Below, one piece after another: positions 117-28,900 of a stretch of DNA of 56,449 nt. The notes under the pieces were generated by a model, which saw only the letters and a program-made list of their open reading frames with translations, did no database searches and was not told where the DNA came from. The DNA comes from a virus. Taxonomy: Duplodnaviria > Caudoviricetes. Each line of letters opens with the position of its first letter. The stretch's first letter is position 1. Both the position numbers and the translations under genes were made by a program. The stretch lies in the IMG/VR virus record IMGVR_UViG_3300020159_000747, positions 1-56,449 of that record. One strand, 5' to 3'.

Positions 117-611
117 GTGATTATCCAAGACGGGGTCACTCTATATGGTGAGAGTGACGTTACCGAACTCAAAGTAGTTTGGGAAAAGCAGTGCGTTGAG
201 AATGTCACCGCACGAGTAGAGGGACAGATACAGGATAGCCTTATTACTGTATTCAAGCGCGAGATTGGTCATGGCAACATGTCCAAGGATTACGCCGTTG
301 AACTTTACAACAAAATAGCCGACGAAAATCGTTGGACACATGTAGAACAAATTGCAGTTACATACAATGTAACAGTAACCCTATTCGGCGACAGTATCTT
401 GTTCGTTGAAAATGTCGAGGCTGACTCTGAGGAAGACGCCTGCGATAAGGTTACCGAAGAACTTGACTTCTCAGATATCGAGGTCAACTTCACCGTTAGC
501 GCCCTTGGCGAGGACGCTTCTGCTACCGTCAGCGACGATTCATACTATGTGGATTTCGCTGGTATCCTGCGCGACAACATTGAGGTTAGCGCAGAAGAAA
601 ACGAGGATTAG
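117..611 (+). CDS. Acidic hypothetical early protein
   Basis: 164 aa ORF, GAGGGG RBS before GTG, followed by terminator. Confidence 0.75.
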   Translation: MIIQDGVTLYGESDVTELKVVWEKQCVENVTARVEGQIQDSLITVFKREIGHGNMSKDYAVELYNKIADENRWTHVEQIAVTYNVTVTLFGDSILFVENVEADSEEDACDKVTEELDFSDIEVNFTVSALGEDASATVSDDSYYVDFAGILRDNIEVSAEENED

Positions 612-627
612 TAGCCCCTCTACTAAT

Positions 628-666
628 AAGCCCCCTGCCACGGACGTGTGGCAGGGGGCTTCTTTC
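628..666 (+). terminator. Rho-independent terminator
   Basis: AAGCCCCCTGCCAC / GTGGCAGGGGGCTT stem followed by CTTTC. Confidence 0.8.
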
Positions 667-681
667 TGCCGTAAGACTATT

Positions 682-766
682 GTTTGTGTTGGGCTTGCTT
701 AGCTATTACTGCTTTATATGCTTTTATAGCGTAGCTATAAAAGCGCTAAGCAAGCCCAACACAAAC
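682..766. repeat. Nested inverted-repeat element copy 1
   Basis: Perfect 22-bp arms GTTTGTGTTGGGCTTGCTTAGC (682-703) / GCTAAGCAAGCCCAACACAAAC (745-766); inner hairpin GCTTTTATAGC-GTA-GCTATAAAAGC (720-744). Confidence 0.85.
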
Positions 767-772
767 TCTGCC

Positions 773-849
773 TGTGGATAACCTACGAGAAATTGTTATA
801 CAAATGTAATCGTGAGAGTGTTCCCTATATATAAGAGATAGGGTAGATT
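773..849 (+). promoter_or_regulatory. Early promoter copy 2 with DnaA box
   Basis: TGTGGATAAC-N11-TGTTATACAAATGTAATC; TTCCCT(821-826)-17 nt-TAGATT(844-849). Confidence 0.6.
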
Positions 850-881
850 AGCAACCGCACCAAAGGGAAAAGGAGACATAT

Positions 882-1391
882 ATGTCTATGACGAGAGATG
901 AGCGAAAGTATCGCTTTTCAGAAATCATCAGCGCAATACATCTACAAGATAATGAAGCAGATAATCCTACGCTACCGCAAGGAACACTAGGGCTATCAGA
1001 CGGCAGACTAAAGAGCGCGATTATGTGCCAAGTATTCAAGGAGAAAGAGGAGTTTCAGATGAAACTCGTCAATGCGCTCGCCAATACTGCGTTAGAACCG
1101 CTAAGTGAGGAAAACGAACCTAGCGAGGACGACCTATCAGCACTATCTATCGCTATCCACACCGCTTGGGGTATGGGTGCTTTCCAACCACTACTAGGTC
1201 TATTGGGCGTGGCTGGTAAGATTAGCGCGGTCTATGATATTGACCTACCTGAGGACATAAGCCTAGTGCTTCGTCCTAATGCGTTTGCCAAGAAGTTCGG
1301 CAAGTTTGACCCATATATGATTATGGACGAGGAACAAGATGAGCAAGTCCGCTCATTACTAAAGGGAGAACAAGACAATGACGACGACTAA
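882..1391 (+). CDS. Hypothetical protein (possible DUF4192-like helical domain)
   Basis: 169 aa, AAGGAG RBS; LSDGRLKSAIM and ALSIAIHTAWGMG loosely resemble DUF4192. Confidence 0.55.
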   Translation: MSMTRDERKYRFSEIISAIHLQDNEADNPTLPQGTLGLSDGRLKSAIMCQVFKEKEEFQMKLVNALANTALEPLSEENEPSEDDLSALSIAIHTAWGMGAFQPLLGLLGVAGKISAVYDIDLPEDISLVLRPNAFAKKFGKFDPYMIMDEEQDEQVRSLLKGEQDNDDD

Positions 1392-1605
1392 GGTTATCAA
1401 CGGCGTAAAAATGGTAGAGATACCATTCGCTATCAACTTCAATGTATGTATCGAGGAACACAAGTATCTCGAATATGCCACAAGTGGAGTGCCCAATGAG
1501 GCACTCGCTCAGGCTGGTATGGAATGTGTAGGCGATAGTCTTATCTCTGTTATGGAGAAGGCTAACGAAGGCTGGACAACTATGATGATAGAGGTGGCAA
1601 AGTGA
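1378..1605 (+). CDS. Hypothetical protein
   Basis: 75 aa, overlaps upstream gene end, GGGAG RBS. Confidence 0.65.
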   Translation: MTTTKVINGVKMVEIPFAINFNVCIEEHKYLEYATSGVPNEALAQAGMECVGDSLISVMEKANEGWTTMMIEVAK

Positions 1606-1751
1606 TAAAGGGATACGACTTTAGAACCTTGTTAGCAACTATCTGCCCTGATTACTCTATAGATACGGACAATGACGGACAGTTAGTTATTTATACCAAC
1701 CTACAAGACGACGGAGACGATAACTATATTCGTTTCCAATACCAAGACTAG
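1602..1751 (+). CDS. Small hypothetical protein (49 aa)
   Basis: GTGA coupling, GAGGTG RBS; MIKGYDF...DNDGQLVIYTNL; below the ORF-track cutoff. Confidence 0.6.
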   Translation: MIKGYDFRTLLATICPDYSIDTDNDGQLVIYTNLQDDGDDNYIRFQYQD

Positions 1752-1760
1752 GAGACGACT

Positions 1761-2282
1761 ATGGGTATGGATGTATATGGTATCGCTCCAACTAGCGAGC
1801 GCGGTGAGTATTTCCGTAATAATGTATGGTGGTGGCGACCACTATGGGATTACTGCTGTGAAGTAGATAGCACTCTAGAGGCTAGAGTGCCACAAGGTCA
1901 TTACAACGACGGCGACGGGCTAAAGACCGCAGAGGAAGCACAGGCGCTAAGCCTATTGTTGCTTCTAAAATTAGAAAGCGGTGAGGCGCTCGCCTATATC
2001 AAGGAACGAGATATGCAAATTGCCCAACTAGAATGGGATACCTGCCGTATCTGTGAAGGTTCAGGTATCAGAGAAGATAAGGTTGGCGTTGAAGGTGGTA
2101 TGCCTACTAAAGAACTGACCGAAGATATTGCTATCTTGGTAGGAAGAACGCATGGCACATGTAATGGATGTCGCGGTTTTGGTAAAACAGAACCCTTTGC
2201 AAGTCATTACCCACTAACAGAGGACAATATACGAGAGTTTGCAGAGTTTCTCCGCGATAGCGGTGGATTCCAAATCTGCTAA
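1761..2282 (+). CDS. Phage protein with DnaJ-type zinc finger insert
   Basis: YFRNNVWWWRPLWDY motif; CRICEGSG and CNGCRGFG (CxxCxGxG). Confidence 0.75.
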   Translation: MGMDVYGIAPTSERGEYFRNNVWWWRPLWDYCCEVDSTLEARVPQGHYNDGDGLKTAEEAQALSLLLLLKLESGEALAYIKERDMQIAQLEWDTCRICEGSGIREDKVGVEGGMPTKELTEDIAILVGRTHGTCNGCRGFGKTEPFASHYPLTEDNIREFAEFLRDSGGFQIC

Positions 2283-2317
2283 CAACCTTATCCCTTCCCC
2301 TTTGGCGATAAGAGAGG

Positions 2318-2352
2318 TAAGCCTACCGTTGCATGGGCGGTAGGCTTATTTC
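2318..2352 (+). terminator. Rho-independent terminator
   Basis: TAAGCCTACCG / CGGTAGGCTTA stem followed by TTT. Confidence 0.7.
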
Positions 2353-2363
2353 ATGCCCGAAAT

Positions 2364-2479
2364 GTTTGTGTTGAATCCCACCCACCCACCCTAGGGGAAT
2401 CCCCTTGAAACCCCTATTGCTATAAATACTTTGTATTTATAGCAATATTGGCTATAACGAAGTTATAGCCAACACAAAC
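2364..2479. repeat. Nested inverted-repeat element copy 2
   Basis: GTTTGTGTTG (2364-73) ... CAACACAAAC (2470-79); inner hairpins TATTGCTATAAATAC-TTT-GTATTTATAGCAATA (2415-47) and TTGGCTATAAC-GAA-GTTATAGCCAA (2448-72). Confidence 0.8.
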
Positions 2480-2481
2480 CC

Positions 2482-2554
2482 TACGGCGTGTGGCGCTTAT
2501 CACATGAGAGATACGGCGTGTCGGCTTGAAAGGAGAGAGAGCAGAGAGTAAGTT
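2482..2554 (+). promoter_or_regulatory. Promoter with upstream TACGGCGTGT direct repeat
   Basis: TACGGCGTGT at 2482 and 2512; TTGAAA(2526-31)-17 nt-TAAGTT(2549-54). Confidence 0.55.
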
Positions 2555-2560
2555 AGGAAG

Positions 2561-2700
2561 TTTAGGCTACTGCCGAGAGAGCCGATAGGCTTATCGGGCG
2601 CAAAGCCAGACTTACGACAGGGTAGCCCTATCGGCTATATGATAAGAAGCAGAGAGAGCAGAGAGAGCAGTAGTCCTATCCCTTACCTATATCTCTCTCT
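2561..2700 (+). ncRNA. Candidate structured non-coding RNA
   Basis: Lies downstream of a promoter with no annotated ORF; stems 2563-73/2667-78 and 2580-89/2627-36. Confidence 0.45.
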
Positions 2701-2756
2701 ATATAACAAGAGATAACCCTATTACCGCGCCGATTTTTCACAGAGAGGCATAAGAA

Positions 2757-2870
2757 GGTTGTTCATAGGTTGTTCAACAGGTTGTGGATAACCCACCAAT
2801 AATCGTTATAAAAATGTAATCAAATATATGCCCTGCTACCTTGCGTCAAATACGGAAATAGACTTAGATA
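2757..2870 (+). promoter_or_regulatory. Early promoter copy 3 with DnaA box and GTTCA direct repeats
   Basis: AGGTTGTTCA x2, then TGTGGATAAC(2783)-N11-CGTTATAAAAATGTAATC; TTGCGT(2841) and TAGACT/TAGATA downstream. Confidence 0.55.
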
Positions 2871-2910
2871 GGAACTAAGCCAATAATGGCGACTAAGAAG
2901 GGTTACACAG

Positions 2911-4377
2911 ATGTCCTTAGCACTAATGGTCGTATCCGACGACCAACTCGAAGGACTACCTGCACAGGCACAGACACTTATCCTATCCGACGATACAGAG
3001 GTATTTATCTACCACCGCGTATCGAACGGCATGAAGGGCAGAGGTCAGGCATGGAAGCAGGTAGCCTTATCACAACTACCAAATACTCCTATCTCACACG
3101 AAGTATGCGCCGTCGTTATCAGCGACCGCGACCGCGACATGATGAAACTAGGGCAGATTACCAATATCGGTATCAAGGCGCTATACGCACTAGAAACCGC
3201 AGAAGCCGTCAATGATGAGGTTATCAGCAACCACAATGAGGTTGCAGGTAGTCTTATCGCTCGCCTAGAAATTGGCGACAATAGCCTCAATGATTACATT
3301 ACGGACAAACGCCGTAATCAGGGCGTATCTATTAAGCCTATCTTTAAGGGTGCAGATACGCCTATCGCGGAAGCAAAGACAGAGGTAGCAACCACCACTA
3401 ATAAGGTTATCGAGGTTCGACCAACCAACGAAACAAGCCTATCGCTCGTCAATGCTATGGTGAGCGTTCCCGACAAGAAGTGGGCGCAGACCTATATCAA
3501 CCGCAAGGTCGTTGATAACCTTACCGACTTCGAGGTATATGACCACGCACTAGCCAACTCCATGAATATCCTTATCGAGGGTCATGCAGGAAGCGGTAAG
3601 ACTATGAGCGCACAGGCTTACGCTAGTGCTCGTAATATGCGTTACTTCAATGTCGCTTGCCATATCGGGCTAGAGGCTTCGCACCTAGTCGGTCGTTGGA
3701 TACCAACTCCCGACGGACACTTCCGTTGGCAAGACGGCGCGGTTACGGAGATAGTCCGTAATGGTGGCGTTCTATTGTTCAACGAGATTAACTTCGCACC
3801 CGAGCGCTTTCTTACCTTTATCTTTTCTTTATTAGATTACCGCCGAGAGATACAACTAATGGAAAATGGTGGAGAAGTAATCAAGGCTCACCCCGACCTA
3901 CTAATCATGGGCGACATGAACCCCGACTATCGTGGCACACGCCCACTAAATCAGGCGCTCGCCGACCGCTTCGCAGTAAGACTATCGTTCCCATACGATA
4001 AGCCTATTGAACAGAAGTTATTAAAGAATAAATCGCTAGTGGAAATGGCAAACCAACTACGCGCCGAGTTCAACAAGGGCACACTCGCTACGCCAGTATC
4101 GACACGCTCGCTAGTAGCCTTCGTTACCAACGCCAAAGCGTTCGGCATGGAGTTCGCTACCTACAACTACATTAACTCGTTCGAGGGTGATGAGGAAAGG
4201 TCAGCAGTAAGGTTAGTAGTCAATACTCACCGCGACAATATCGCAGAGGAGTTAGGCTTAGCGGTTACTTCAATTAAAACAGAGGAAACCATTACCGAAA
4301 TGCTAGAGGATAAGATTAGCGACACTTCCGTTATGAATATCCCTATCACCAACTACCAAGCATACGCAGGTAACTAA
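2911..4377 (+). CDS. MoxR-family (CobS/CbbQ-like) AAA+ ATPase
   Basis: Walker A GHAGSGKT, variant Walker B LLFNEIN, WQDGAVT, MNPDYRGTRPLNQALADRF. Confidence 0.88.
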   Translation: MSLALMVVSDDQLEGLPAQAQTLILSDDTEVFIYHRVSNGMKGRGQAWKQVALSQLPNTPISHEVCAVVISDRDRDMMKLGQITNIGIKALYALETAEAVNDEVISNHNEVAGSLIARLEIGDNSLNDYITDKRRNQGVSIKPIFKGADTPIAEAKTEVATTTNKVIEVRPTNETSLSLVNAMVSVPDKKWAQTYINRKVVDNLTDFEVYDHALANSMNILIEGHAGSGKTMSAQAYASARNMRYFNVACHIGLEASHLVGRWIPTPDGHFRWQDGAVTEIVRNGGVLLFNEINFAPERFLTFIFSLLDYRREIQLMENGGEVIKAHPDLLIMGDMNPDYRGTRPLNQALADRFAVRLSFPYDKPIEQKLLKNKSLVEMANQLRAEFNKGTLATPVSTRSLVAFVTNAKAFGMEFATYNYINSFEGDEERSAVRLVVNTHRDNIAEELGLAVTSIKTEETITEMLEDKISDTSVMNIPITNYQAYAGN

Positions 4378-4379
4378 TC

Positions 4380-6284
4380 GTGTGGCGCAACGAGCAAGAT
4401 AGCCTAGATAGGCTTATGAACGAGATATATCAGAGTGCGACATGGAATAGCGATACCGCAACTATGGAATATGGCGTTGATATTGAAGCCAAGCAAGAAG
4501 CCTATCAGGAACACAAAGAGGCGCTATCAAGCGTTGGAGTTATCTACTCTCGCGCCGATAGTATTATCACAGGCGACAAGGTAGAGGTTAAGATAGACGA
4601 CGACCCCAACTTAGATACCACCGCTTACAACGACGGCAAGGCTATCGTGTTCAACGCCTCACTATTAGAGGATATTGACGATAACACTATCGTTAGCCTT
4701 CATGGGTTCAACTACCATGAGGTCGGACATATCCAATACACGCCACGCGCCAATAGCGAGTTAGGTCAATGGGTTATACAAAATAAGTATAAGCGTTGCC
4801 TAAATATCCTAGAGGATAGTCGTATCGAACGACTATTGGTAGCAAAGTATCCTGCAACGCAACCTTTCCTAGAGGCTTCGACCCTTGAATATATATTAAA
4901 GGGCGACAGTAGCGAGTGGGCTTCCCTATTTATCCTTATCACAGGTAGAAAATACCTTGATATAAATATCCGACAAGAAATTGCTACACGCTTCGCCACA
5001 AACTTCGGGCAAGCGACCGCGATAACCTTAGCGGATATTATCCATGAGTATCGGACATTATCTTTCCCCAAAGATTATGACCGCGCTAAAAGGCTTATCG
5101 CAGAGTTCTCTAAATACATGGGAACAGATGAGGATACGCCACCACCACTAATGCCAACTAACGGCAAAGGTGAGTGCGACGGACATATTGACCGAAGCAT
5201 GATGAAAAAGGGTCGCGTCGAAAGCGCTAAGGAACAAGACCGCTTACAGGAAAAAGCCGACCGCATGGAAGGTTCAACCAAGCGCGAAAACTTAGACGAT
5301 AAGCCTAGCGAGGAAGCACAACAAAGCGAAGGCGCAGGTGGCGGTGATAGTCCTATCACTACTAAAGAAGTTCAAGATAAGATGAACGACAACGATAAGG
5401 CTATTAAAGACCTTATCAACCAACAATTATCTAATCTCCAAAACAACGAAGTGGTGAAGCGCGATACCGCAGAAGTGCGTAGAGCGATTATGGATAATGA
5501 GGAAATGCGTAGCGGAGTTAAATCTGCTTCCTATTCTAATATGTCCGTAAGCATGACGGCTTCCGCAAGCGCTCGACGCTTCGCGGTGGAGTTAGAGCGA
5601 CTACGCATAGATAACGACCCTGCATGGCTACTAGAAGTAGAAAGCGGTCGCCTCAATGTCGGTCGAGCCATGAACGCCGATATAAATAACATAGATAAGT
5701 TATTTGATAGGTGGGAACAAGGTAACGATAGCAACGATATTGAAGCGGTAATCTTAGTAGATACTAGCGGTAGCATGGGCGGTCGTATCTATAAGACAAT
5801 GGAAACGGCATGGACACTAAAGCGCGGTATCGAGCGTATCAACGGCAGGGTTACTGTCTATAAGTTCAACCACGATAGTCGTATCGTATATAAAGCAGAC
5901 GATAAGGCTAAGAGTGATGAGTTTAGGTTCTGCCAAACTAGCGGTAGCACTAATCCCTTTAAGGGCTTAATCGAGGCAGAGCGTATCCTCAACGCAAGCC
6001 GTAAGGGGATAAAGATATGCTTCATTATCACCGACGGCGAGTGGGATAGCGACGACCTCAATAATCAGATTATCTCTCGCATGAATAACGCAGGTGTCTT
6101 AACACAGGTGGTATTTATCGGTAGCCTAGAGTGGTATAAAGAAAACCACCCCGACGACTACGAGAAAATGATTATCCGCTATCGTCATGGCGCTAAGTTC
6201 TTTAAGGTAGTAGATGAGGAGAAAGATATTATCGCTATCGCCAAAGACTTAGTGAAGTCGCAGATGAAGGTAGTCAGACGATAA
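4380..6284 (+). CDS. VWA-domain protein with N-terminal HExxH domain (MoxR partner, CobT-like)
   Basis: YHEVGH, NILEDSRIE, MIDAS DTSGS, ITDGE. Confidence 0.85.
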   Translation: MWRNEQDSLDRLMNEIYQSATWNSDTATMEYGVDIEAKQEAYQEHKEALSSVGVIYSRADSIITGDKVEVKIDDDPNLDTTAYNDGKAIVFNASLLEDIDDNTIVSLHGFNYHEVGHIQYTPRANSELGQWVIQNKYKRCLNILEDSRIERLLVAKYPATQPFLEASTLEYILKGDSSEWASLFILITGRKYLDINIRQEIATRFATNFGQATAITLADIIHEYRTLSFPKDYDRAKRLIAEFSKYMGTDEDTPPPLMPTNGKGECDGHIDRSMMKKGRVESAKEQDRLQEKADRMEGSTKRENLDDKPSEEAQQSEGAGGGDSPITTKEVQDKMNDNDKAIKDLINQQLSNLQNNEVVKRDTAEVRRAIMDNEEMRSGVKSASYSNMSVSMTASASARRFAVELERLRIDNDPAWLLEVESGRLNVGRAMNADINNIDKLFDRWEQGNDSNDIEAVILVDTSGSMGGRIYKTMETAWTLKRGIERINGRVTVYKFNHDSRIVYKADDKAKSDEFRFCQTSGSTNPFKGLIEAERILNASRKGIKICFIITDGEWDSDDLNNQIISRMNNAGVLTQVVFIGSLEWYKENHPDDYEKMIIRYRHGAKFFKVVDEEKDIIAIAKDLVKSQMKVVRR

Positions 6285-6371
6285 GATAAATATAGAGTTA
6301 GGGCGTGGGCTAACCCTTCCCCCCACGCCCTACACAAACTAGGGAAGTCAGGAATTAAACGGAGATGGAAC

Positions 6372-6563
6372 ATGGACATAGAAATCGAGCAAGGCACAGA
6401 CAATATAAATATAGATTACAAGGAAATGCTTAAAGTAACGCTTAACAAGATACTAGACATAGTGCAAGATACCAACCACCCGCAAGCGGAAAATCTAAAT
6501 AACCTAGCGCTTAGTGCTATTGACTATGCGTTCTACCTAGAGGACAATACTAAAATCAGATAG
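6372..6563 (+). CDS. Hypothetical protein
   Basis: 63 aa, GGAG RBS. Confidence 0.6.
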   Translation: MDIEIEQGTDNINIDYKEMLKVTLNKILDIVQDTNHPQAENLNNLALSAIDYAFYLEDNTKIR

Positions 6564-6571
6564 GGGATAAA

Positions 6572-6826
6572 GTGATATACGACGAAGTATGCAAGAAATA
6601 CCTAGAGGGCGATAGTTCGGCTATTATCCTTATAGATACGGCGTTAGGTGCAAGCCTTGACCTAAACTACTTACGCGGTAGCAAGGATACCCGACTAGAT
6701 AACCTTGATTACTATGATGAACGACAAGATATTGACGAGTGGGTTGATAGCCTTACTAAGGTTATCGCAGACTTAAATCTGCAAGCGCCTATGATTACCC
6801 GATTAGATGAGATAGATGAGGAATAA
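6572..6826 (+). CDS. Hypothetical protein
   Basis: 84 aa, AGGGG RBS. Confidence 0.6.
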   Translation: MIYDEVCKKYLEGDSSAIILIDTALGASLDLNYLRGSKDTRLDNLDYYDERQDIDEWVDSLTKVIADLNLQAPMITRLDEIDEE

Positions 6827-6832
6827 AAATAA

Positions 6833-7148: not shown

Positions 7149-7178
7149 TATATACAACAACTATTAGAGAGAAAACAA

Positions 7179-7887: not shown

Positions 7888-7907
7888 TATAGAAAAGAGA
7901 TAATCAA

Positions 7908-9298: not shown

Positions 9299-9415
9299 TA
9301 GCGCTGGGTGTTCCTCATCTCCGCCCTTAATTATGGCTTCCGTCCCTTCGCCATAATTAACGCTATAGCATAAAGAAAGCCCCCCTAGTTCGGGTCTAGG
9401 GGGGCTCTCTACTTT
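9299..9415 (+). ncRNA. Candidate sRNA with two C/U-rich loops
   Basis: -10 TAGGAT (9289-94); closing stem TAGCG/CGCTA, two hairpins with pyrimidine loops, then a terminator. Confidence 0.45.
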
Positions 9416-11568: not shown

Positions 11569-13035
11569 CTATTCTTCTATAGCGCCCTTGATTATTTCTG
11601 TGGTTTGGGCTTCGTTGAACCCGCCATTTGGTAACTCTTTTAGGGCTTGAGCCTTGTCTCCGAAGATAGAACTTAGCACACCAGCAGAGCCTTGTCGCTC
11701 TACAGTCATGCGAATAAACTCACGTGAGTCGTCCAACTCTTTGGTAGTTTTAATCAATTTAAATAGGCGGTCAATTTCCTGAGAAACGTTAGGGTCAGCG
11801 TATCCGCCGTTCATTTCTTCAGCAAAACGCATAAAAGCAACGCGTTGTCCCTGCATTTCTATAATTGCATTAATCAAACTCTTAAGTTGGTCTTTAGTCT
11901 TTACTTCTATTGGTAACTTAAAAGCACATACAGATTGAGGCTTGAAAGCGGGGCAGTTAGTGGCTACAAAACAAGTGTCGCATGCACGAAGTGAGGTCTG
12001 TTGGGAGTTGATTGAGGTGACATCTTTGATAGTCCCATCCTCATCAATTTCGGTCTTTGTATTAAATCCGAAGACTGGAAGATTGCCCATTTCAGCAGGG
12101 TTTCGCGGCTCAAGTTTCCGCATATCTACCCCCCTATTATCATATACGGCAGGAGCACTTTCCCCACTTTGCTCCACTTCACTCCCCTCACTGTTATCAT
12201 ATAACATTGGGTCTTCTGGATTACCGTTCATCTTGTTCATCCTTACTTCAAACTGTTCGTATGACCACACGGCTAACTTAGCAACTTCTTGTGGGTCGTC
12301 CTCAAGAATCTTATCTATATCCAAGCCAGCCTTTTCATAGGTCGCCTTGTATCTAGCACGTGCTTGGTCTTTCATTTTCTTTGGGTAGCGGACAAGCCTA
12401 GTGCCATCCCAAATAATAGTCTCACCATGCATCATTGGTGATAGCCACGATAAGGTGCTTGCGGAGTCAAATGGGACTTGACGCAGGTTATCTGGCTTGG
12501 CGCATCCTAACGCATGCCAGCGTGTCCCCTGACGCTTGCTATGGATACGAGTAGCGCTTGCCAACTGGGTCTCTGTCTCGATGGCGTCGCCTGGAATAGC
12601 AATATCTAGGTAATACTCAACTAGGTTCTTTAGGCCTTCGTAACCTGTCTGTGGCTGCCATACAGGCACGAACTTAGCAGGTGGGACCTCTGACCACACA
12701 TCCTTGCGTTGTTGGTCTATGAACTCAGGGTCAATGCCGTAGCCGTTAATCTCATAAAAGGTGGTAAGCCTGTCCATATTTACAGCCACGAAATGCTCGT
12801 AACCAGCTGCAAACTCTTCTAGCTCAGCTGGGCCCAGCTTCAGCGTCTTGGGCAGGCCAGGGGATACATAAATATAGAAATCTTTATTAAAGTAGTTTTC
12901 TAATAGATACTCTTTGGTCTTTGGCAGGCCACGTTGCACCAGGCGGTAGTAGCTCACTCCCACATGGTTGGCTGTGGTTTCCTCAAGTATTACTCTATTT
13001 GAAGGAACCTCAGCACCTAAGTAAATAATCTTCAT
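11569..13035 (-). CDS. Degenerate DpdA/TGT-fold protein fused to a 4-Cys C-terminal domain
   Basis: IYLG, VSYY, VPVW, DIAIPG, HALG and PFDSASTLSW follow the phage TGT-like motif order; C-terminal CDTC-x5-C-x8-C. Confidence 0.55.
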   Translation of the reverse strand: MKIIYLGAEVPSNRVILEETTANHVGVSYYRLVQRGLPKTKEYLLENYFNKDFYIYVSPGLPKTLKLGPAELEEFAAGYEHFVAVNMDRLTTFYEINGYGIDPEFIDQQRKDVWSEVPPAKFVPVWQPQTGYEGLKNLVEYYLDIAIPGDAIETETQLASATRIHSKRQGTRWHALGCAKPDNLRQVPFDSASTLSWLSPMMHGETIIWDGTRLVRYPKKMKDQARARYKATYEKAGLDIDKILEDDPQEVAKLAVWSYEQFEVRMNKMNGNPEDPMLYDNSEGSEVEQSGESAPAVYDNRGVDMRKLEPRNPAEMGNLPVFGFNTKTEIDEDGTIKDVTSINSQQTSLRACDTCFVATNCPAFKPQSVCAFKLPIEVKTKDQLKSLINAIIEMQGQRVAFMRFAEEMNGGYADPNVSQEIDRLFKLIKTTKELDDSREFIRMTVERQGSAGVLSSIFGDKAQALKELPNGGFNEAQTTEIIKGAIEE

Positions 13036-17394: not shown

Positions 17395-17940
17395 TTACTT
17401 CCATTGTGGTCGCATACGCGACATCTGCTCTTGGCGTACCTTGTTAATGTTAACAGGTGAATCGCTTTTAACAGTTGGACCCGCTTTACCGTCGTTAGGA
17501 AGGTGTGGAGCAGGTACCAAGTTGTAGGCTTCGACGTGACGCTTGACCTTGTATACGTTTCCCTCTTTAGCTGCTTGCATCTGTCGAGCGATGCCTCTTG
17601 TGTTTTCTAAACCTGCGGGATAGTAATAATCAGACTGGTCAATACGTTCACCACGGTGAACACCGCGTTGGTATGAACGTTGAGTGACACGAGTCTTTAG
17701 ACTGTCAAGTACATTTTCTGATGTTCCGTTTGGTTTGCCACGGCCACGGTCATCACGTCGTGTACGAATAGTTCCAAGATATCCGTCTGGATACTCGGCT
17801 TGCGGTACGCGGCCGACACCCATACGCACGAAATCCATCTCGCTACGTGCAACAGGAGTTCCACCTCCACCATAATTGGTGTAGGTGCCCTGCATACCTG
17901 CAGCGCCTAGATTTTGTGTGTTTTGGTGTGGGCCAGCCAT
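17395..17940 (-). CDS. Hypothetical Gly/Arg-rich protein
   Basis: 181 aa; EYPDGYLGTI, RSYQRGVHRGERID; leaderless start. Confidence 0.7.
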   Translation of the reverse strand: MAGPHQNTQNLGAAGMQGTYTNYGGGGTPVARSEMDFVRMGVGRVPQAEYPDGYLGTIRTRRDDRGRGKPNGTSENVLDSLKTRVTQRSYQRGVHRGERIDQSDYYYPAGLENTRGIARQMQAAKEGNVYKVKRHVEAYNLVPAPHLPNDGKAGPTVKSDSPVNINKVRQEQMSRMRPQWK

Positions 17941-19361: not shown

Positions 19362-19453
19362 AAAGTAAACCCCCTGCTAAATATTTTATTTAGCAGGGGG
19401 TCACGGTACAAGAAGGGGGAGTCGTACTATAACAGGGTTACAGTACGTCTTGC
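19362..19453 (-). ncRNA. Candidate ~90-nt sRNA with CUCCCCCUU segment and its own terminator
   Basis: -10 TATTAT (19460-65); hairpin 19423-47; C-rich tract 19413-21; terminator 19369-19401. Confidence 0.5.
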
Positions 19454-19501
19454 AATCATATAATAACACTGGTGAACGTCAGTGGACGTCCACGGACAGC
19501 T

Positions 19502-20580: not shown

Positions 20581-20859
20581 TTAACTTGCTTTAACGTCAA
20601 AAACAATTGCTGAAATCTGACCATCGTGGCTATCAATGCTTGAGAAGCCAGGGATGCAGAGTAGGTCTAGACCTCGTGGGGCTGTGTATCCACGGGCAAT
20701 AGCAATAGCCTTGACTGCTTGGTTTACTGCGCCAGCTCCAACCGCACGAATTTTGCAAGTGCGTGTCTCATAAATGCTGTGTGCAATAGCTGATGCTACA
20801 GCTTGTGGGTTGCTTCCTGCGCCTACGCGTAGGATTTGTTCATCTTTTGGTTCGGACAT
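20581..20859 (-). CDS. spoVS: SpoVS-family protein
   Basis: LRVGAGSNPQAVASAIA...AVGAGAVNQAVKAIAIARG. Confidence 0.9.
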   Translation of the reverse strand: MSEPKDEQILRVGAGSNPQAVASAIAHSIYETRTCKIRAVGAGAVNQAVKAIAIARGYTAPRGLDLLCIPGFSSIDSHDGQISAIVFDVKAS

Positions 20860-20911
20860 GTGTACCTCGGTTTACGAATAGTGTGGAACCCCGTAGATAC
20901 AATTATGCAGT

Positions 20912-22433: not shown

Positions 22434-22996
22434 TATCGTTCCCTATGTTTGACGTCTTGTAGTTTATCGTACACATCTTTTTCATACGTTAATTCATGCT
22501 TGCCAGAAACCACCCTAGCTAGGGAGTAGGAATCTGCGGCGTTGTCGTCCGTGAATTCTACACCCCACTTCTTATAAATGTGAAGTAACATCTGGTTCTT
22601 TTGTATACCTGTTCCCTTGCCTGTCACATACTTCTTTAGGCTGGTAGGCGGTACTAGTAAGGGGTAATGCCCAGCCTCATGACATTCAAGCTTAACCATA
22701 CCTCCTAACTCACCTAAATGGAACACTCTTCCTGAGCCTGCGTAAGCGTAATCTTCCATAGCTACATCTAATATCTTGATGGGCATATCAAATAGGACAT
22801 TACTAAGAAATAGCCTAATTTCTACTAAACGGTCTATACCTCGTAAATCAGATTTAAACACTTTAGTAAAAAAAGTGTTGTCATCTCCTAACAGGGTTAT
22901 AGCAAATCCACTATATGACTGGTCTATGCCTACATACACTGGAACAGGGCTACTGCCTGCGAGGTCGAGACCTCCATCAAAATTTTTAATGGTCAT
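22433..22996 (-). CDS. ruvC: RuvC-like Holliday junction resolvase
   Basis: VGIDQS, VAMEDY, LGELGG, PTSLKKYVTGKG, DNAADS. Confidence 0.85.
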   Translation of the reverse strand: MTIKNFDGGLDLAGSSPVPVYVGIDQSYSGFAITLLGDDNTFFTKVFKSDLRGIDRLVEIRLFLSNVLFDMPIKILDVAMEDYAYAGSGRVFHLGELGGMVKLECHEAGHYPLLVPPTSLKKYVTGKGTGIQKNQMLLHIYKKWGVEFTDDNAADSYSLARVVSGKHELTYEKDVYDKLQDVKHRER

Positions 22997-23484
22997 GGTA
23001 CAAATCTATTTCCCATCATCCGACTGCTAGATGTACGTCGGGTTAGCTCACGACTTGTCAACGAGTAGTAACGTTCTAGGTTTTCTAACGCAGTCTCCAA
23101 CAGCTTTCTATATGCGTGGGCATAGTTCTTTGCTTTGTCTAAAACCATGATGTAATCATCGGTAGCAACAGCTGCCTTTAACATGACGGCTTTTTCTGTG
23201 CTCTTACCAGTGGTTTTCATTAGCAACCCTTTAGCAACCTCAAGGTCATAGGAGTTCGTGGCCTCTAACTCCGCAAGGTTAGCGCAGGCTACCTGGGTAC
23301 GTAAGAAGTTTAAGTTCTCCATATATTTACCAGCCATAACCATTAGTTCTTGGTCATCAACCAGAGTAATATCCGCTGGAAACTCGGGTGGTTGGATGTT
23401 CATTGAGCGTTTTAATGGCAGCCCTTGGGACTCCAACTGTTGTAGGACAATCTCGCTGATGCCTGTTGCTACTATCTCACTCAT
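22993..23484 (-). CDS. Helical hypothetical protein (possible recombination mediator)
   Basis: 163 aa coiled-coil-like protein within the recombination cluster. Confidence 0.55.
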   Translation of the reverse strand: MSEIVATGISEIVLQQLESQGLPLKRSMNIQPPEFPADITLVDDQELMVMAGKYMENLNFLRTQVACANLAELEATNSYDLEVAKGLLMKTTGKSTEKAVMLKAAVATDDYIMVLDKAKNYAHAYRKLLETALENLERYYSLTSRELTRRTSSSRMMGNRFVP

Positions 23485-24334
23485 TATAACCTCCGCACTT
23501 AGAACATCCGCCCCACTTGTCTAAATTACAAACAGGAGGGGTGTTGGTATTAATGGCTTCCATAATCATTGCTGCTGCCTCAAACATAGGGGCAATAGCA
23601 AAATCAGACTTAGGTACTACAAATTCCTTTACATCCTGTGATGCTTTGTTTTCGTATATAAGCACTGCTTCTCTTGGATAATCTGGCAACTCTAACAACT
23701 CAGCAAGCTTCATATAAATCTGTACTTGAGTAATGTGCTTAGCAAAAGGCTCTTTAATATCTGCCCAAATCTTTTCCATATTACCGCTGTGTTGTGCTAC
23801 TAACTCTGGGTTTTCCCAGCGGATAGTTCCAATACCTATGGATTTAACCTCTAGCATTAGTGGGTCACCTAGGTTTACTAACCATCCATCAGCATGACCT
23901 GAGATGCGTAGTGGCTCGTAGAACAATGGGACTTCACAATACTCAAGTGGGCCTTCGTGGCAATCAGAACCGCCAAAGAAGTACTCATCACAATCCTTGC
24001 AGTACCACTTGCCATACAGACAGTTCATTTCTTGGAACCACTTCTGCCATTTAGCGTGGATACCGTGTCCTTCAGCAAAAACAGACTGCAATCTAAGACT
24101 GTTAGTGCGATTACTTTCTAAGGGATGGTGGCCCTTTAACTGGAAGTAAGAAGCTCTGTAGCACCACTCACCGCTTGCCATCTCTGATGGATGCAGTACG
24201 TCAGTGCGACGACTCATGTCTTTTGGTTTAGAAAGTACATGTCTTTCTACTGAAGTTAATACTCTGCTTGGTTTTTTACCAGCATTTACAAAGTTCTTTA
24301 ATGCCCCCGAAGGCTTGTACTTAGGTTGTGTCAT
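23477..24334 (-). CDS. Cas4-like PD-(D/E)XK exonuclease
   Basis: HPSE..C, GHGIH, SGHADG, LEVKS, QVQIY, C-terminal Cys cluster. Confidence 0.8.
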   Translation of the reverse strand: MTQPKYKPSGALKNFVNAGKKPSRVLTSVERHVLSKPKDMSRRTDVLHPSEMASGEWCYRASYFQLKGHHPLESNRTNSLRLQSVFAEGHGIHAKWQKWFQEMNCLYGKWYCKDCDEYFFGGSDCHEGPLEYCEVPLFYEPLRISGHADGWLVNLGDPLMLEVKSIGIGTIRWENPELVAQHSGNMEKIWADIKEPFAKHITQVQIYMKLAELLELPDYPREAVLIYENKASQDVKEFVVPKSDFAIAPMFEAAAMIMEAINTNTPPVCNLDKWGGCSKCGGYNE

Positions 24335-24346
24335 ATTCAGACCCTA

Positions 24347-24664
24347 TCACACATCAAGGTCAAGCACCCATTCCTCAAGTGTTTTTCCTTGTTTCTTAGC
24401 TTTACGTTTTAACGCGTTACGTTCACGGTGAGACATACCGCCCCATATACCGTGCTGTTCATCCATTGACTCTGCGTATAACAAACACTCTTTACGTACA
24501 GGACACTCTGGCAAACCGTCCTTACCAAAGCAGACTGCTTTAGATACGGTTGCTACTTTTTTATACTTTGCTTTATCTCTTGGTGGATACCACAACTCAG
24601 TATCCATACCGCGACACTTGGCTTTATGTCTCCAGCCTTCTACGTGTCCGATGTCTTCGTGCAC
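24347..24664 (-). CDS. whiB: WhiB-family transcription factor
   Basis: WRHKAKC...VC...CPVRKECL...GIWGG..ER. Confidence 0.92.
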   Translation of the reverse strand: MHEDIGHVEGWRHKAKCRGMDTELWYPPRDKAKYKKVATVSKAVCFGKDGLPECPVRKECLLYAESMDEQHGIWGGMSHRERNALKRKAKKQGKTLEEWVLDLDV

Positions 24665-24984
24665 TCAATAAACTCCTGAAGTCTCTGGCGTAGTTCCAGA
24701 AAGTCATCTTCAGTTAGCATCACGTAATTTTCATTATTGAGACTGAAACCGAGGACAGGCATCCGACTGTCAAGAATTGCTTCTGTAACAATCTTTTCTA
24801 GAACCGTAGCTTTAATTGTTACGGTGGCTTTGCCAGTCCACTTGTGTTCTATTAACAAGTCTTTAGACCGAACATCACCTTTACGACTCCAAAATGCACC
24901 GCTGGCAGCTGTACGCTGACCACCAATAGCTTTTGCTAGTCGGTCCTCATGCTTCTTCGACTCCTTTTGTCCTTTACTCTTCAT
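24640..24984 (-). CDS. Hjc-like PD-(D/E)XK resolvase/endonuclease
   Basis: HEDRLA...SGA...GDV...LIEHK. Confidence 0.72.
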   Translation of the reverse strand: MKSKGQKESKKHEDRLAKAIGGQRTAASGAFWSRKGDVRSKDLLIEHKWTGKATVTIKATVLEKIVTEAILDSRMPVLGFSLNNENYVMLTEDDFLELRQRLQEFIECTKTSDT

Positions 24985-26026
24985 TCTCGGCTACCAGTTT
25001 GGAGCCTGCTTTGATGGAGTCAAGTACATCGCGTTCTAAAGTCTCTTTTAAATCAATTTCTTCCCGTATAGCGTCAAGCATAGCATCAGAACCCTGCCAC
25101 TGTCTATCCGCGTAACGATAGTAGGCACCAGCCCTGCTAATCACCTTGTTTAGTATGCCAATAGCAAGGATTTCTTTAGCAAAATCAATGTCGCCAGCAT
25201 GTAAACCATTGCCCTTTGAGAAGTAAAAGTCAAAGGTAGCCACCTGTGATGGTGGGGCTGACTTGTTCTTAATAACTCTGGCTTTAATACTCTGCCCTAC
25301 ACGACGTTTATCCTGACCAGTGCCTACTTCAATCCAGTCATCGCGACGGACTTCAATACGGGTAAAGAACGCATAATCTTTACCCAACCCACCTGGGGTA
25401 GTACGTGGGTCACCATACATGACACCAATCTTGGAACGCCACTGGTTAATAACAATACCAATAAACGGGCGCTCTTCTTCTGTAAGACTTCTTTTAGATG
25501 CTTTGCCTACCTTACGGAAAAACTTATTAGTTAGAAGGGCGCTACGACCTACAGTAGATTCCTCCATCTCCTTATCGTTTTCTGTTGTAGGGACCAAGGC
25601 AGGTAAAGAATCAAGAACAATACAATCGACCGCTTTACTTTCTGTAAGTTGGATGACAGATTCATATGCTTGCTCCATAACGTTAGTTGAAACTACGTAT
25701 ACACGAGTGGAATCTACGCCACACATTTCTGCGTATGTAGGAACCCACTGTTCTGCTGCTACCCACACTGTTGTAAACTCGGGGTCGCGCTTTTGATTAG
25801 CAGCAATAGTTTTTAATGCAATAGCAGTCTTACCATTACTAGCTTCACCAATGATTTCATGCCACTGGTTTACTGGCCACCCACCGCCTAATGCAACGTC
25901 CAGTGATACTGAGCCAGTTGTGTAACGCTGAGCAACATCAGTCTTAATGTCAGACCCGAGAATGATGGTGTCATCCCCGTACTTCTTGTTAATATTCTTT
26001 AAGACTTTTATTAGCTCTGCATTCAT
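24974..26026 (-). CDS. recA: RecA recombinase
   Basis: TGSVSLDVALGGG, GEASNGKT, VLDSL, INQWR, YGDPRTTPGG, KNK. Confidence 0.92.
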   Translation of the reverse strand: MNAELIKVLKNINKKYGDDTIILGSDIKTDVAQRYTTGSVSLDVALGGGWPVNQWHEIIGEASNGKTAIALKTIAANQKRDPEFTTVWVAAEQWVPTYAEMCGVDSTRVYVVSTNVMEQAYESVIQLTESKAVDCIVLDSLPALVPTTENDKEMEESTVGRSALLTNKFFRKVGKASKRSLTEEERPFIGIVINQWRSKIGVMYGDPRTTPGGLGKDYAFFTRIEVRRDDWIEVGTGQDKRRVGQSIKARVIKNKSAPPSQVATFDFYFSKGNGLHAGDIDFAKEILAIGILNKVISRAGAYYRYADRQWQGSDAMLDAIREEIDLKETLERDVLDSIKAGSKLVAENEE

Positions 26027-26376
26027 TAAATGTGTCCTATGATTGTGTTTGGATTAAAACCGCCTGCTTGTACTTGTTTTGCTGCTTGAGTAGGACCATC
26101 TGCTCTTGGACTATTTACTCCAGCAACACCAGTTCCAGATTGAACAATTGGATAACCGCAATCATAGCAGCGTTTGCGAGACTCGGGGGTTGCCCCACCG
26201 TAGTTGTTACTTCCACATCCAGGACAACGTTCTGATAAAGGAACTGTTTGCTGAACTGTTGGGTATGAAGGAGGCTGTTGATAAACTGGTTGCTGTGGTT
26301 GAGCCTGTGGTGTTACAGGTTGAGGTCGCGGAGCGGGTGTGCCCCCTAATTTATTAGCCCACCAATTACTGCTCAT
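26026..26376 (-). CDS. Pro/Gln-rich zinc-ribbon protein
   Basis: CPGC...CYDCGYP. Confidence 0.7.
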   Translation of the reverse strand: MSSNWWANKLGGTPAPRPQPVTPQAQPQQPVYQQPPSYPTVQQTVPLSERCPGCGSNNYGGATPESRKRCYDCGYPIVQSGTGVAGVNSPRADGPTQAAKQVQAGGFNPNTIIGHI

Positions 26377-26869
26377 CGTCCTCTACCTTTCTGTAAGCCA
26401 GGTCAGTTGCGTGAACTTCCCCAGGCACTATTAAACCAATTTTCATGGCGCTTGACAAGCCCCCTAACAAAGATGAAAAACCAATCATCCTATACATCAT
26501 ATGCATCATTTCGGTTTCTCTTTCAATTTCTTTTTCTAAGAAACCGTCTGGCTCTCGTTTTTTAATCTCATCTACTTGCATAGCAACAATGACATCAGCA
26601 CCTAACTCTGCAATCGTAGATATAAAAGGTATTAGATATTCAATCTTATCTAAGCGTGAGTCGCTTTCACCCTCCTCATGCTCATGCCCCTCATCACTTA
26701 CTGGGTTCATACCTAGTAGTAATGCTAACTCGTTAGGGTGCTCAGCTAAATCTGTATCGTATAGATACCAACGCATTAGTGTACCTAGCGGTATTTCTTC
26801 TTTAAAATGCTCAAAAGATACATTAATTGGGTCACCATTTTTTTTAAAGAAACGACTAAACCAACTCAC
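26366..26869 (-). CDS. Hypothetical protein
   Basis: GTG start coupled to the polA stop. Confidence 0.7.
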   Translation of the reverse strand: MSWFSRFFKKNGDPINVSFEHFKEEIPLGTLMRWYLYDTDLAEHPNELALLLGMNPVSDEGHEHEEGESDSRLDKIEYLIPFISTIAELGADVIVAMQVDEIKKREPDGFLEKEIERETEMMHMMYRMIGFSSLLGGLSSAMKIGLIVPGEVHATDLAYRKVEDDEQ

Positions 26870-28836
26870 TTTGCTTCTCCCCATCGCTGGACTACCCTTA
26901 CGTCTGCAATAAGAGGTACCTCTAGTAGGTTGATGCCTTCCATGGCTTCTCTAATAGCTTCTTTAGTTTCATCAACAAGACTATCTGGAGTCAAAGTAAC
27001 AAGTTCATCGTGCACCGTTAACAAGATACTAGCCCCCTTAGGAATCATCTGATGAGCCCTAATCATAGCAAGCTTCATGATGTCAGCAGCAGACCCTTGA
27101 ATGCGTGTGTTGAACGCCTGACGCTCAGCTCCACCACGCTTTAGAAAATCTCTGGAGTTAATTTCAGGTAGGTAACGCTTACGTCCCATCAATGTGGAGA
27201 CGTACTGTTTACTTCTAGTAGCCCCAATAACCTTAATGCGATAGATATTTACGGACTTAAACTTATCCGCAAAGTCTCCTAGTAAAGTACGCGCTTCGGT
27301 AACAGTGCAACCAATAGAACGAGCAATCTTATCTGGACCTACTCCGTACGCCATAGATAAAACAAGAACCTTTCCAGCCTGACGGTTTACCTTCATGACG
27401 TCCCCAACAGTTGTATAGATGTCCCCACCCTCTACATAGTTTTTAACCATAGTTGGGTCCTTAGACATAGACGCAATGATGCGAGGTTCAATCTGTGAGT
27501 AGTCAGCGACCACTAGTTTGTATCCTGGCGGTGCATAAAACAAGTTACGGATAGCCTTACCGTGTGCGGTAGCGGGGTTAGGAACGTTCTGTAAGTTTGG
27601 GTTACGGCTAGAGAAGCGACCAGTCTCAGCTCCGTGTTGGATAAAGTCAGCGTGGATGCGCCCATCAACTAATAGGCTTTCTTTGTACTCTACTTTAGAT
27701 TTACCACCAACTGTACGAACAACGTCACCGCCCAGGTATGGGATTACGTATGTGCTCTGTAACTTATTTAAGTCTGCGTAGGTAAGCAAGGCGTGTACTA
27801 ACAAGTTCTTCTCACGGTAAGGCTCTAGGGCCTCGGCTGACACGGAGTAATCCATGTAGTCAAGGTCCATGCCTTTCATCTCTTTGTCTTGACCCTTTGC
27901 GGTAAGAATCTTTGGGCTTAGTCCCTGACCCCCATCAGACTTCTTGCTATATAAAAGATATTGTTTTTCCTGATTAGAGTTAATGTTAAACACGCGTCCA
28001 GCAATCTTATAAATCTCTGACCTAGCTTTTTCTATATCTATCTCTAGCTGAGTATTAAGTATGGCTAACTGCTCAGTATCAATAGGTGCGCCGTGCAGCT
28101 TCATATGACATAAGACCTCTAACACACCCATCTCTAGGTTCATGATGTTATCTAGGTCAGCTTCTGTAAGCTTTTTAGCCACTTCTTTCCATAGTAGGAA
28201 CGTGTACTTAGCATCTAAGTATGCGTATTTAGCCACAATGCTAAACGGGTGGACCTCGACCTGAGCACCAACACCCTTCTCCATTTCATAACCCAACTCA
28301 CGCTTTAAGCAATCGTCAAGGCCACACTTGTTTTTATTACGGTTGTCATATACAAATGAACCAACCATGGTGTCAAAATAAGGTCCTGTAGGTATTTTTT
28401 TATCTAGATACTTAGAGACGGAGCACAAGTCAAAGACTAAGTTGTGCCCTACTTTTAACTTGTCACTAAAAAATAAAGGTTTTAATGCTTCAAAGACTTC
28501 GGCTGGGAAGAGTTGTTCAGGAGCAGGGCCGAAAGTTTTAGTAGCTTTTTTGCGGTCACGAGAGTAATCACTCTCTCTAGCCTGTAAGCCCGCGAGAACG
28601 CGCTTCTCCCCTTGCCCCGTGAGTGGGAAGCTCTCTGATATAAATTCACCATTTGGGTGGCCCAACGGAATAACATCCCCGCGACCATGTGTCGCAAGGC
28701 TAATCCATAATACTTGGTTGACAACTGGGACTCCTCGTCTTGCTCCAACAGTTTCTACGTCAAAAGCAAAAGCATCTTGCTTAAGATAGTAAGCAACCAT
28801 CTCATCTAGTTGTTCTCTTGTTGTAATGATGTTCAA
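26866..28836 (-). CDS. polA: Family A DNA polymerase with 3'-5' exonuclease domain
   Basis: FDVET, HNLVFD, YAYLDA, TGRFSSRNPNLQN, DYSQIE, RQAGK...YG, VHDE; probable TTG start after AAGGGG. Confidence 0.93.
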   Translation of the reverse strand: MNIITTREQLDEMVAYYLKQDAFAFDVETVGARRGVPVVNQVLWISLATHGRGDVIPLGHPNGEFISESFPLTGQGEKRVLAGLQARESDYSRDRKKATKTFGPAPEQLFPAEVFEALKPLFFSDKLKVGHNLVFDLCSVSKYLDKKIPTGPYFDTMVGSFVYDNRNKNKCGLDDCLKRELGYEMEKGVGAQVEVHPFSIVAKYAYLDAKYTFLLWKEVAKKLTEADLDNIMNLEMGVLEVLCHMKLHGAPIDTEQLAILNTQLEIDIEKARSEIYKIAGRVFNINSNQEKQYLLYSKKSDGGQGLSPKILTAKGQDKEMKGMDLDYMDYSVSAEALEPYREKNLLVHALLTYADLNKLQSTYVIPYLGGDVVRTVGGKSKVEYKESLLVDGRIHADFIQHGAETGRFSSRNPNLQNVPNPATAHGKAIRNLFYAPPGYKLVVADYSQIEPRIIASMSKDPTMVKNYVEGGDIYTTVGDVMKVNRQAGKVLVLSMAYGVGPDKIARSIGCTVTEARTLLGDFADKFKSVNIYRIKVIGATRSKQYVSTLMGRKRYLPEINSRDFLKRGGAERQAFNTRIQGSAADIMKLAMIRAHQMIPKGASILLTVHDELVTLTPDSLVDETKEAIREAMEGINLLEVPLIADVRVVQRWGEAK

Positions 28837-28853
28837 TTGATACCCCTTAAGAG

Positions 28854-28900
28854 TCTGGGGAGCCATATTAGAAAGGGGATTAAGAACATGGCTCCCCAGA
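28854..28900 (-). other. 13-bp intergenic stem-loop with TCCCCTTT in the loop
   Basis: TCTGGGGAGCCAT / ATGGCTCCCCAGA between the ssb-like gene and polA. Confidence 0.65.

Follow-up and report, generated by a model that had tools for sequence, protein, structure and literature searches.

Candidate anti-Shine-Dalgarno RNA elements at the 3' ends of transcription units in a phage genome, four of them matched to the start region of their own unit

The IMG/VR virus record IMGVR_UViG_3300020159_000747 is a phage sequence of 56,449 bases (estimated completeness ~59%), which was analysed over its whole length and is referred to here as the window. It contains six C/U-rich elements, E1 to E6, with runs of the CCCCU/CCCUU type in the transcribed orientation. 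An initial annotation of this DNA had described them as unrelated sequences directed against ribosome-binding sites, which would switch off host or early phage translation in general. Our analysis suggests a different picture, in which the C-rich stretches are anti-Shine-Dalgarno RNA elements at the 3' ends of transcription units, and in which E1, E2, E3 and E6 are cognate to the start region of the gene that opens their own unit. From the sequence comparisons we assign this reading a probability of about 0.6. These four elements match the first start region of their own unit best, and the matches co-vary among related phages, which points to a fold-back of the transcript 3' end onto its 5' end instead of a general switch-off of translation.

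All six elements were found at the coordinates of the initial annotation. Four of them, E1, E2, E4 and E5, are immediately followed by a G+C-rich hairpin with a U-rich tail, as is typical of intrinsic terminators:

607..627, + strand: E1, hairpin with an 8-base-pair (bp) stem and the loop CCCCT; the stop codon of gene 117-611 lies inside the stem
628..661, + strand: terminator hairpin after E1, 15-bp stem
2287..2312, + strand: E2, C/U tract CCCTTCCCCTTTGG in a weak 6-bp stem, 3' of gene 1761-2282
about 2318..2348, + strand: terminator hairpin after E2, read from the sequence
6299..6332, + strand: E3, hairpin with an 11-bp stem and the loop CTAACCCTTCCC, 3' of the CobT-like gene, without a U tract
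9327..9360, + strand: E4, hairpin with an 11-bp stem and the loop TTCCGTCCCTTC, before a terminator
9378-9406: terminator after E4
19413-19421, - strand: E5, CTCCCCCTT, in an unpaired tract and not in a loop
19402-19368, - strand: terminator after E5
28854..28900, - strand: E6, hairpin with a 16-bp stem and the loop CTTAATCCCCTTTCT, 3' of gene 28911-29645 and ahead of the DNA polymerase gene

The hairpins E3 and E6 lie between cistrons, have no U tract and do not precede terminators in the window; about 12 of 21 E6 orthologues, by reading, are followed by at least 3 T. The C-rich motif is located 3' of the last stop codon of its unit.

Each element was compared with all 81 start regions of the window for the length of the complement. 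For E1, E2, E3 and E6, the best partner was the start region of the gene that opens the unit, 0.5-3.4 kb upstream:

105..111, + strand: partner of E1, Shine-Dalgarno region AGAGGGG of gene 117-611; complement of 7 nucleotides (nt), joint first, as 2 of the 81 start regions reach 7 nt
860..876, + strand: partner of E2, CCAAAGGGAAAAGGAGA, start region of gene 882-1391, the first in its operon; 8-nt complement, joint first, as 2 of the 81 reach 8 nt
2897..2905, + strand: partner of the E3 loop, GAAGGGTTA, start region of the CobS-like gene 2911-4377, which opens the operon; 9-nt complement, the sole one of the 81 above 6 nt
30475..30482, - strand: partner of the E6 loop, AGGGGATT, start region of gene 30061-30471, ~1.6 kb upstream; 8 nt, best of the 81

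The E1 unit consists of a single gene (117-611), and gene 30061-30471 is the first of three contiguous genes that end at E6. Complementarity of the C-rich stretches to G-run Shine-Dalgarno regions of the phage's own genes, as proposed in the initial annotation, is therefore borne out by these matches. The AGGGG-type sites that it had listed before 117, 6572, 14777, 28836 and 30471 are real, but they represent a minority of the ribosome-binding sites of this phage, in which GGAG is usual (25 of 81 start regions, versus 4 with AGGGG, or 5 with the corrected polymerase start). Complementarity to a Shine-Dalgarno region of the own transcript, combined with compensatory change, was found for E1, E2, E3 and E6 and not for E4 and E5; the compensatory changes are natural variation among lineages and not mutagenesis.

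For E6, 80 of the 232 relatives of the polymerase locus in the viral collection were examined. They provided 36 distinct sequences upstream of the polymerase gene, all of which have a strong hairpin at the same place, and the stems of these hairpins comprise more than a dozen unrelated sequences. The alignment was restricted to the 21 distinct sequences with a C-run in the loop, and 15 sequences without it were excluded. In these 21 sequences, 93.5% of the stem cells are paired and 13 of 14 pairs are changed on both sides, while the CCCC core of the loop is kept with one invariant column. The covariation score was reached by 0 of 500 shuffles, and slid controls pair in 27-50%. Moreover, the stem contains 32 G-U cells versus 4 A-C cells, and the E6 structure is therefore one of the sense-strand RNA. 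Kept loop, co-varying stem and G-U excess together agree with the proposal that these C-rich stretches function as RNA, read in the transcribed orientation.

The partner of E6 was followed by locating the orthologue of gene 30061-30471 in the relatives and comparing its start region with the E6 loop; three rows in which the start codon could not be placed were dropped. A G-run is present in this upstream start region in 18 of 18 rows with a C-loop and in 0 of 11 rows without it, the latter all reading TTAGGAAA. The helix formed by loop and start region varies by lineage (AGGGGATT, AAAGGGGATTA, GGGGATAGTC, GGGGATAAT, and AGGGGGTG with G-U), and further variants are AAAGGGGATT(A), GGGGATAG(TC), GGGGATA, AAAGGGG and, with G-U pairs, GGGGGTGGT. 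At least 6 contiguous pairs are found in 17 of the 18 C-loop rows, and at most 5 in the 11 other rows. When cognate pairs were compared with permuted ones, P was 0.00095 for match length, 0.0002 for duplex energy, 0.0019 with G-U allowed and 0.0075 after close relatives had been collapsed to 14 rows, values that overstate independence in that the lineages share ancestry. As judged from these comparisons, the complementarity is specific to the cognate unit, and both of its sides co-vary among lineages.

The same data bear on a DNA-level explanation, according to which the matched segments would be inverted repeats delimiting gene cassettes, at which moron-like units recombine, invert or transpose. 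The early units are modular, each with a terminator, a long palindrome and a promoter at its boundaries, and the matched segments on either side of a unit can formally be described as short inverted repeats. However, the repeats differ between units and co-vary instead of being constant, and one copy is always placed on a Shine-Dalgarno region, its counterpart in a loop or ahead of a terminator. In addition, G-U pairs are tolerated both in the E6 stem and in the long-range helix, where 4 of them occur in 3 of the 18 rows (L077, L051 and L086, numbers of this type denoting related sequences), and this is expected for sense RNA only. We therefore regard the DNA-level explanation as very unlikely.

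A nearer partner for the E6 loop was also considered, namely a G-rich site beside it:

28843..28848, - strand: AAGGGG, ribosome-binding site of the polymerase gene, just 3' of E6

This site would be too near the foot of the 16-bp E6 stem for contact with the loop. A pseudoknot between the loop and the adjacent site was rejected, as it would have to span a 13-18-bp stem with a linker of 3-8 nt; furthermore, the group with 83% polymerase identity (L025, L030, L031) keeps the loop, but its site reads GAGG. In Streptomyces phage Alone3, a distant relative in culture, the polymerase of which is 39% identical, a hairpin precedes the polymerase gene and its loop is without a C-run. This hairpin (L096 2407-2460) has 12 bp and a pyrimidine-rich loop and is located between the genes for single-stranded DNA-binding protein and DNA polymerase, a position analogous to that of E6.

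A second line of evidence is provided by E2. Its C/U tract is kept in L006 and L011, where the small stem is not kept and the tract is single-stranded. For the last gene of the E2 operon, 80 of 293 relatives were examined and 57 distinct downstream sequences were obtained. Among 15 distant loci, which were picked by eye from the 57 rows for a terminator-like hairpin following the gene, 13 have a C-run between stop codon and hairpin, likewise by eye. In distant E2 operons (45-98% protein identity), 8-11-nt matches connect the element to the start region 1.0-1.7 kb upstream, and these matches differ by lineage: AAGGGATAAGG, AGAAAGGGGA, GAAGGGGGTA, GGAGATACTA, AGGGGGTA and GAGATTAGG, with GGAGATACTA corresponding to a canonical GGAG site that reaches the start codon. 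The best matches of 14 lineages, misses included, sum to 116, compared with a mean of 84.8 and a maximum of 101 for shuffled elements. Thus, 0 of 2000 composition-preserving shuffles reach the observed sum, and 8 of the 14 lineages are individually at P<=0.015.

Whether the loops are conserved in relatives had been raised as a decisive question for the initial proposal, and the answer differs between elements. Besides E6, the loops of E1 and E3 are kept. E1 is present in two other lineages (L006, L179) with a changed stem and the loop CCCC(C), and two scans revealed no further E1 lineages. E3 is kept in lineages at ~73% protein identity, in which the stem is longer with compensation and the loop is nearly unchanged; a conserved ACACAAAC comes after it. 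The relatives of E4, in contrast, have pyrimidine-rich loops in which the C-run is not conserved. A model built from E6 does not retrieve E1 or E4, and its next-best match after E6 is E3, which at 14 bits and E=0.22 is not significant. A further hairpin of this kind was noticed in L004 (4270-4318), before the terminator of the unit that ends just before window position 1; it has the loop CCCCAC, and its C-run complements the G6 ribosome-binding site (TGGGGGG, 7 nt) of its own gene.

A loop that is conserved while its stem varies is also typical of hairpins that are recognised by proteins, and four elements sit just upstream of terminators. The C-rich loops could accordingly be sites for an RNA-binding protein of phage or host, an antitermination factor that acts before terminators, or a C-preferring endoribonuclease. 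We consider this improbable, because it does not account for the nucleotides flanking CCCC, which co-vary with a start region 1-1.7 kb away, and because no RNA-binding protein family was found among the 50 + 23 open reading frames scanned.

The cognate reading was further examined within single genomes by permuting elements and start regions among six early units, in L004, which represents the window lineage, and in L006. The observed match length was reached by 7 of 720 permutations in L004 and by 13 of 720 in L006, the observed duplex energy by 25 and 2 of 720, and the observed cofold by 43 and 3 of 720, respectively. Thermodynamic folding predicts 5'-3' pairing for two units. In a partition-function fold of the full-length E2 transcript (1541 nt), E2 and its own start region form 13 pairs in the minimum-free-energy structure with probabilities up to 0.99, and E1 pairs with its own start region at a probability of ~0.57. 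For the L006 orthologues, the full-length folds give summed pair probabilities of 10.3 and 2.27, the site with 2.27 being rank 1 of 434 distant windows.

C-rich loops are also more frequent in the window than expected by chance. The intergenic sense-strand hairpins whose stems reach 7 bp provide 26 loops, of which 7 contain CCC and 1 GGG, and the expectation for CCC from random intergenic segments of matched lengths is 2.16 (P=0.003). In the whole window CCCCTT is scarce, with 14 copies versus 24.2 expected, and 4 of its 7 sense-strand copies, by reading against the gene map, fall into the intergenic ~10%. Presumably, the C-rich loops also bear a resemblance to the CCUCC core of 16S rRNA and the pyrimidine-rich 3' tail in which it lies.

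Besides the shared ancestry of the lineages and the selection by eye mentioned above, several observations weigh against cognate pairing. E4 and E5 are without a cognate partner, as 29 and 80 of the 81 start regions, respectively, match them equally well. Three to five of the 14 E2-type lineages have no match. In the window lineage, the specificity of the cofold is modest (the 43 of 720 permutations given above), and six further units show little or no 5'-3' pairing in full-length folds, with summed probabilities of 0 to 1.15; these low values are partly explained by the fact that nested folding cannot represent loop contacts, which also places E3 and E6 outside its reach. For some elements, the match to an early start region of another unit equals or exceeds the match to their own; for example, the E2 element of L006 has an 11-nt match to a foreign start region and 10 nt to its own. 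The genome-wide frequency of G-run ribosome-binding sites shows no clean association with the presence of C-loops across four groups (10.8%, 5.3%, 8.7% and 14.6%). Finally, no C-run precedes any of the 11 sense-strand terminators in the loci that flank the polymerase gene in relatives, so this layout is not universal, and C-runs before terminators were dismissed as a general rule.

Several of these points would fit elements without a shared function, that is, hairpins that stabilise 3' ends and are pyrimidine-rich by composition or by avoidance of ribosome-binding sites, with matches arising by chance. The G-run frequencies do not follow the C-loops, the pyrimidine-rich E4 loops of relatives are not conserved, and composition-preserving shuffles already reach matches of ~6 nt. 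This explanation is nevertheless hardly credible in view of the E6 loop core kept in 21 sequences, the enrichment of CCC loops, the 9-11-nt matches that lie exactly on start regions together with an E2 sum that no shuffle reached, and the association between C-loop and upstream G-run in E6.

The foreign matches are as good as the own ones in some cases and therefore leave room for action in trans or for cross-talk between units. Trans-acting RNAs directed against ribosome-binding sites would be 3' ends, cut or accumulating, and along with E5 these would bind G-rich sites on a number of phage or host mRNAs in the manner of 6C, a small RNA (sRNA) that is a precedent in Actinobacteria (PMC6486639). 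The early start regions have a AGAAAGGGG-like sequence in common, so one element can match several of them, and the E2 element of L006 matches two over 10-11 nt. The organisation of E5 fits such a role as well:

19368..19455, - strand: E5 unit, consisting of a promoter-like TTGCAA-18-TATAGT (19455-19426), unpaired CTCCCCCTTCTT (19421-19410) and the terminator (19402-19368)

The hexamers TTGCAA and TATAGT, in the -35 and -10 positions, are invariant in two lineages with a spacer varying between 17 and 18 nt, and the 28 nt after the promoter, including the C-rich tract, are nearly invariant, although the neighbouring Hsp20 protein is only 55-61% identical. The predicted RNA of ~60 nt would have an unpaired C-rich 5' end and a strong terminator (fold z-score -5.96). 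E5 is thus probably a separate RNA with its own promoter and a 5' C-rich seed acting in trans, as suggested by this build. The C-run at E5 is also missing in lineages without the E6 C-loop.

For the elements as a whole, action in trans is nonetheless unlikely, because the elements complement their cognate unit better than other units and because E5 has no standout phage target: its seed has 6 near-matches in the phage versus 4.06 expected, none of them at a start region. The initial proposal of stand-alone sRNAs is consistent with the build of the E5 unit, whereas E1, E2, E3 and E6 pair best with the start of their own unit. The E5 tract could equally be the 3' untranslated region (UTR) of the Hsp20 gene, because two RNA-library contigs from different studies extend from this gene across the tract as far as 19401 and 19417, at the terminator's foot. 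These belong to four contigs (X1-X4, three studies) that match parts of the window at 90-99% identity; RNA-library contigs carry no information on transcript ends, strand or small RNAs, and DNA carry-over is possible. Repeated GTCCA(N)GGAC / CCACTGACGT motifs of operator-like appearance are located at 19465-19500 (- strand), upstream of the E5 promoter, and in a lineage without the C-run these motifs lie downstream of a conserved GTTATAGTACGACTCC.

If cognate pairing holds, the completed 3' end would pair with the 5' start region, either within one molecule or between copies. This pairing would close the ribosome-binding site, so that mainly the nascent transcript would be translated, and the 5'-3' duplex may also mark the RNA for decay. 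RNAs that end at the elements, their pairing in cells and the resulting translational repression would be expected by analogy, and ribosome-site closure with possible decay is derived from three systems, namely icaR, hok tac/fbi and 6C sRNA.

In Staphylococcus aureus, the icaR 3'UTR motif UCCCCUG pairs with the Shine-Dalgarno region of its own mRNA, as demonstrated by mutagenesis and RNase III assays, with cis versus trans pairing left open by the authors (PMC3868564). The phage elements share with icaR a C-rich anti-Shine-Dalgarno motif at the 3' end that faces a G-rich Shine-Dalgarno region of the same mRNA, and the position 3' of the last stop codon corresponds to icaR-type fold-back. Different from icaR, which is one monocistronic host gene (PMC3868564), several multi-gene phage units are concerned here, and the element resides in a hairpin loop or right before a terminator and is known from natural co-variation and folding. 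In hok mRNA, a 5'-3' stem between tac and fbi keeps the full-length message untranslated (PMC9841398). The pairing of the transcript 3' end with the 5' end is similar, although deduced here from sequence matches, but hok is a small toxin mRNA with an antisense RNA and activation by 3' trimming, and its fbi pairs with tac and not with a Shine-Dalgarno sequence (PMC9841398). The genes of the phage units encode 136-634 amino acids, and no toxin or antisense RNA family was found in the scans.

The C-rich loops of the actinobacterial 6C sRNA bind G-rich ribosome-binding sites without a chaperone (PMC6486639). The phage elements likewise combine C-rich loops with G-rich ribosome-binding sites or 5'-UTR loops, and the likely host belongs to the same phylum; unlike them, 6C has two C-rich loops and is a conserved host RNA of the stand-alone type (PMC6486639). 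The 6C covariance model gave no match in the window, where an Rfam search at gathering thresholds returned only three tRNAs, and an Rfam E-value search of 1-30000 contained no 6C match at E<=5. Matches to mir-3910 and rli38 were weak and far below thresholds and were discarded, so no Rfam family fits the elements. The RsaE-type sRNAs of Firmicutes are trans-acting host sRNAs with a C-rich (UCCC) seed that target Shine-Dalgarno regions. They resemble the phage elements in directing C-rich unpaired motifs to such regions; beyond the C-run there is no similarity in sequence or structure, and the phylum is another one.

Pairing between the 5' and 3' ends of bacterial mRNAs has so far been described for only a few individual cases, icaR and type I toxin mRNAs among them. 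The principle is thus known; what is new, as far as we have seen, is that it recurs in several operons of a single phage and shows compensatory variation in nature across many lineages. No description of phage elements of this type was found in the freely accessible full-text literature. A broader interpretation, which we advance tentatively and do not favour, is a phage-wide code of "transcript closure", in which each early or middle operon would have a private anti-Shine-Dalgarno sequence at the 3' end that pairs back with the ribosome site of the first cistron upon completion of the transcript and so serves as a built-in translational timer, supplemented by the separately transcribed E5 with a generic anti-Shine-Dalgarno seed for host or phage messages. 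If this were true, it would be the first case of 5'-3' mRNA closure as a recurrent and co-evolving principle of genome organisation instead of a single-gene trait. Independently of this broader interpretation, recurrence in several operons with co-evolution across dozens of uncultured relatives would make fold-back a general means by which a phage controls the amount or timing of translation of its early and replication genes, with no protein regulator involved. It would also add an RNA layer to actinophages and provides natural compensatory variants.

We read the phage as one that infects freshwater Actinobacteria. An actinophage is suggested because a WhiB-like factor is encoded at 24347-24664, and the full placement follows from this gene together with the CobS/CobT-like pair, for which Gordonia and Brevibacterium phages gave the best matches among cultured phages, the family-A DNA polymerase, which is ~39-40% identical to Streptomyces phage polymerases, and the lake and river samples from which the relatives originate. 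A near-identity search of the phage collection with the window gave no match. The + strand carries the genes up to ~9300, the - strand those from 9422 on. Other features of the window are:

2911-6284: CobS/CobT-like gene pair
11569-13035: queuine tRNA-ribosyltransferase-like (DpdA-like) gene
20581-20859: SpoVS-like gene
30867-31091: three tRNA genes

In the RNA-library contigs, word depth peaks (~30-32) at window positions 17429-17902 in two lake samples of one study, depth not being a measure of expression.

The early units share a common layout. A conserved motif, TGTGGATAA(C/G)-N12-GTTAT, precedes every early unit; it occurs three times in the window (2-28, 773-799, 2783-2809) and in 5-6 copies in relatives (L004, L006, L011). 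It is probably an early promoter or operator. The first nine bases of the motif resemble a DnaA box. A long palindrome with TTGTTTGTGTTGG...CCAACACAAAC at its borders occupies the space between each terminator and the promoter that follows (681-767 and 2355-2480 in the window), and it shows compensatory changes from TTAGC/GCTAA to TTGGC/GCCAA in relatives (L004, L006, L011). Its sole Rfam match is a weak, spurious microRNA, and ACACAAAC, mentioned above, also follows E3. Upstream of the CobS promoter, a non-coding stretch of ~300 nt (2480-2780) with repeated GCAGAGAGAG motifs is ~73-75% identical in relatives and may be a structured RNA or a regulatory region. Hairpins with G-rich loops (AAGGG), a mirror of the 3' C-rich loops, are present in some 5' UTRs of early units in L004 (921-945) and L006 (3440-3466), both on the + strand, and these loops may be partners in loop-loop contacts.

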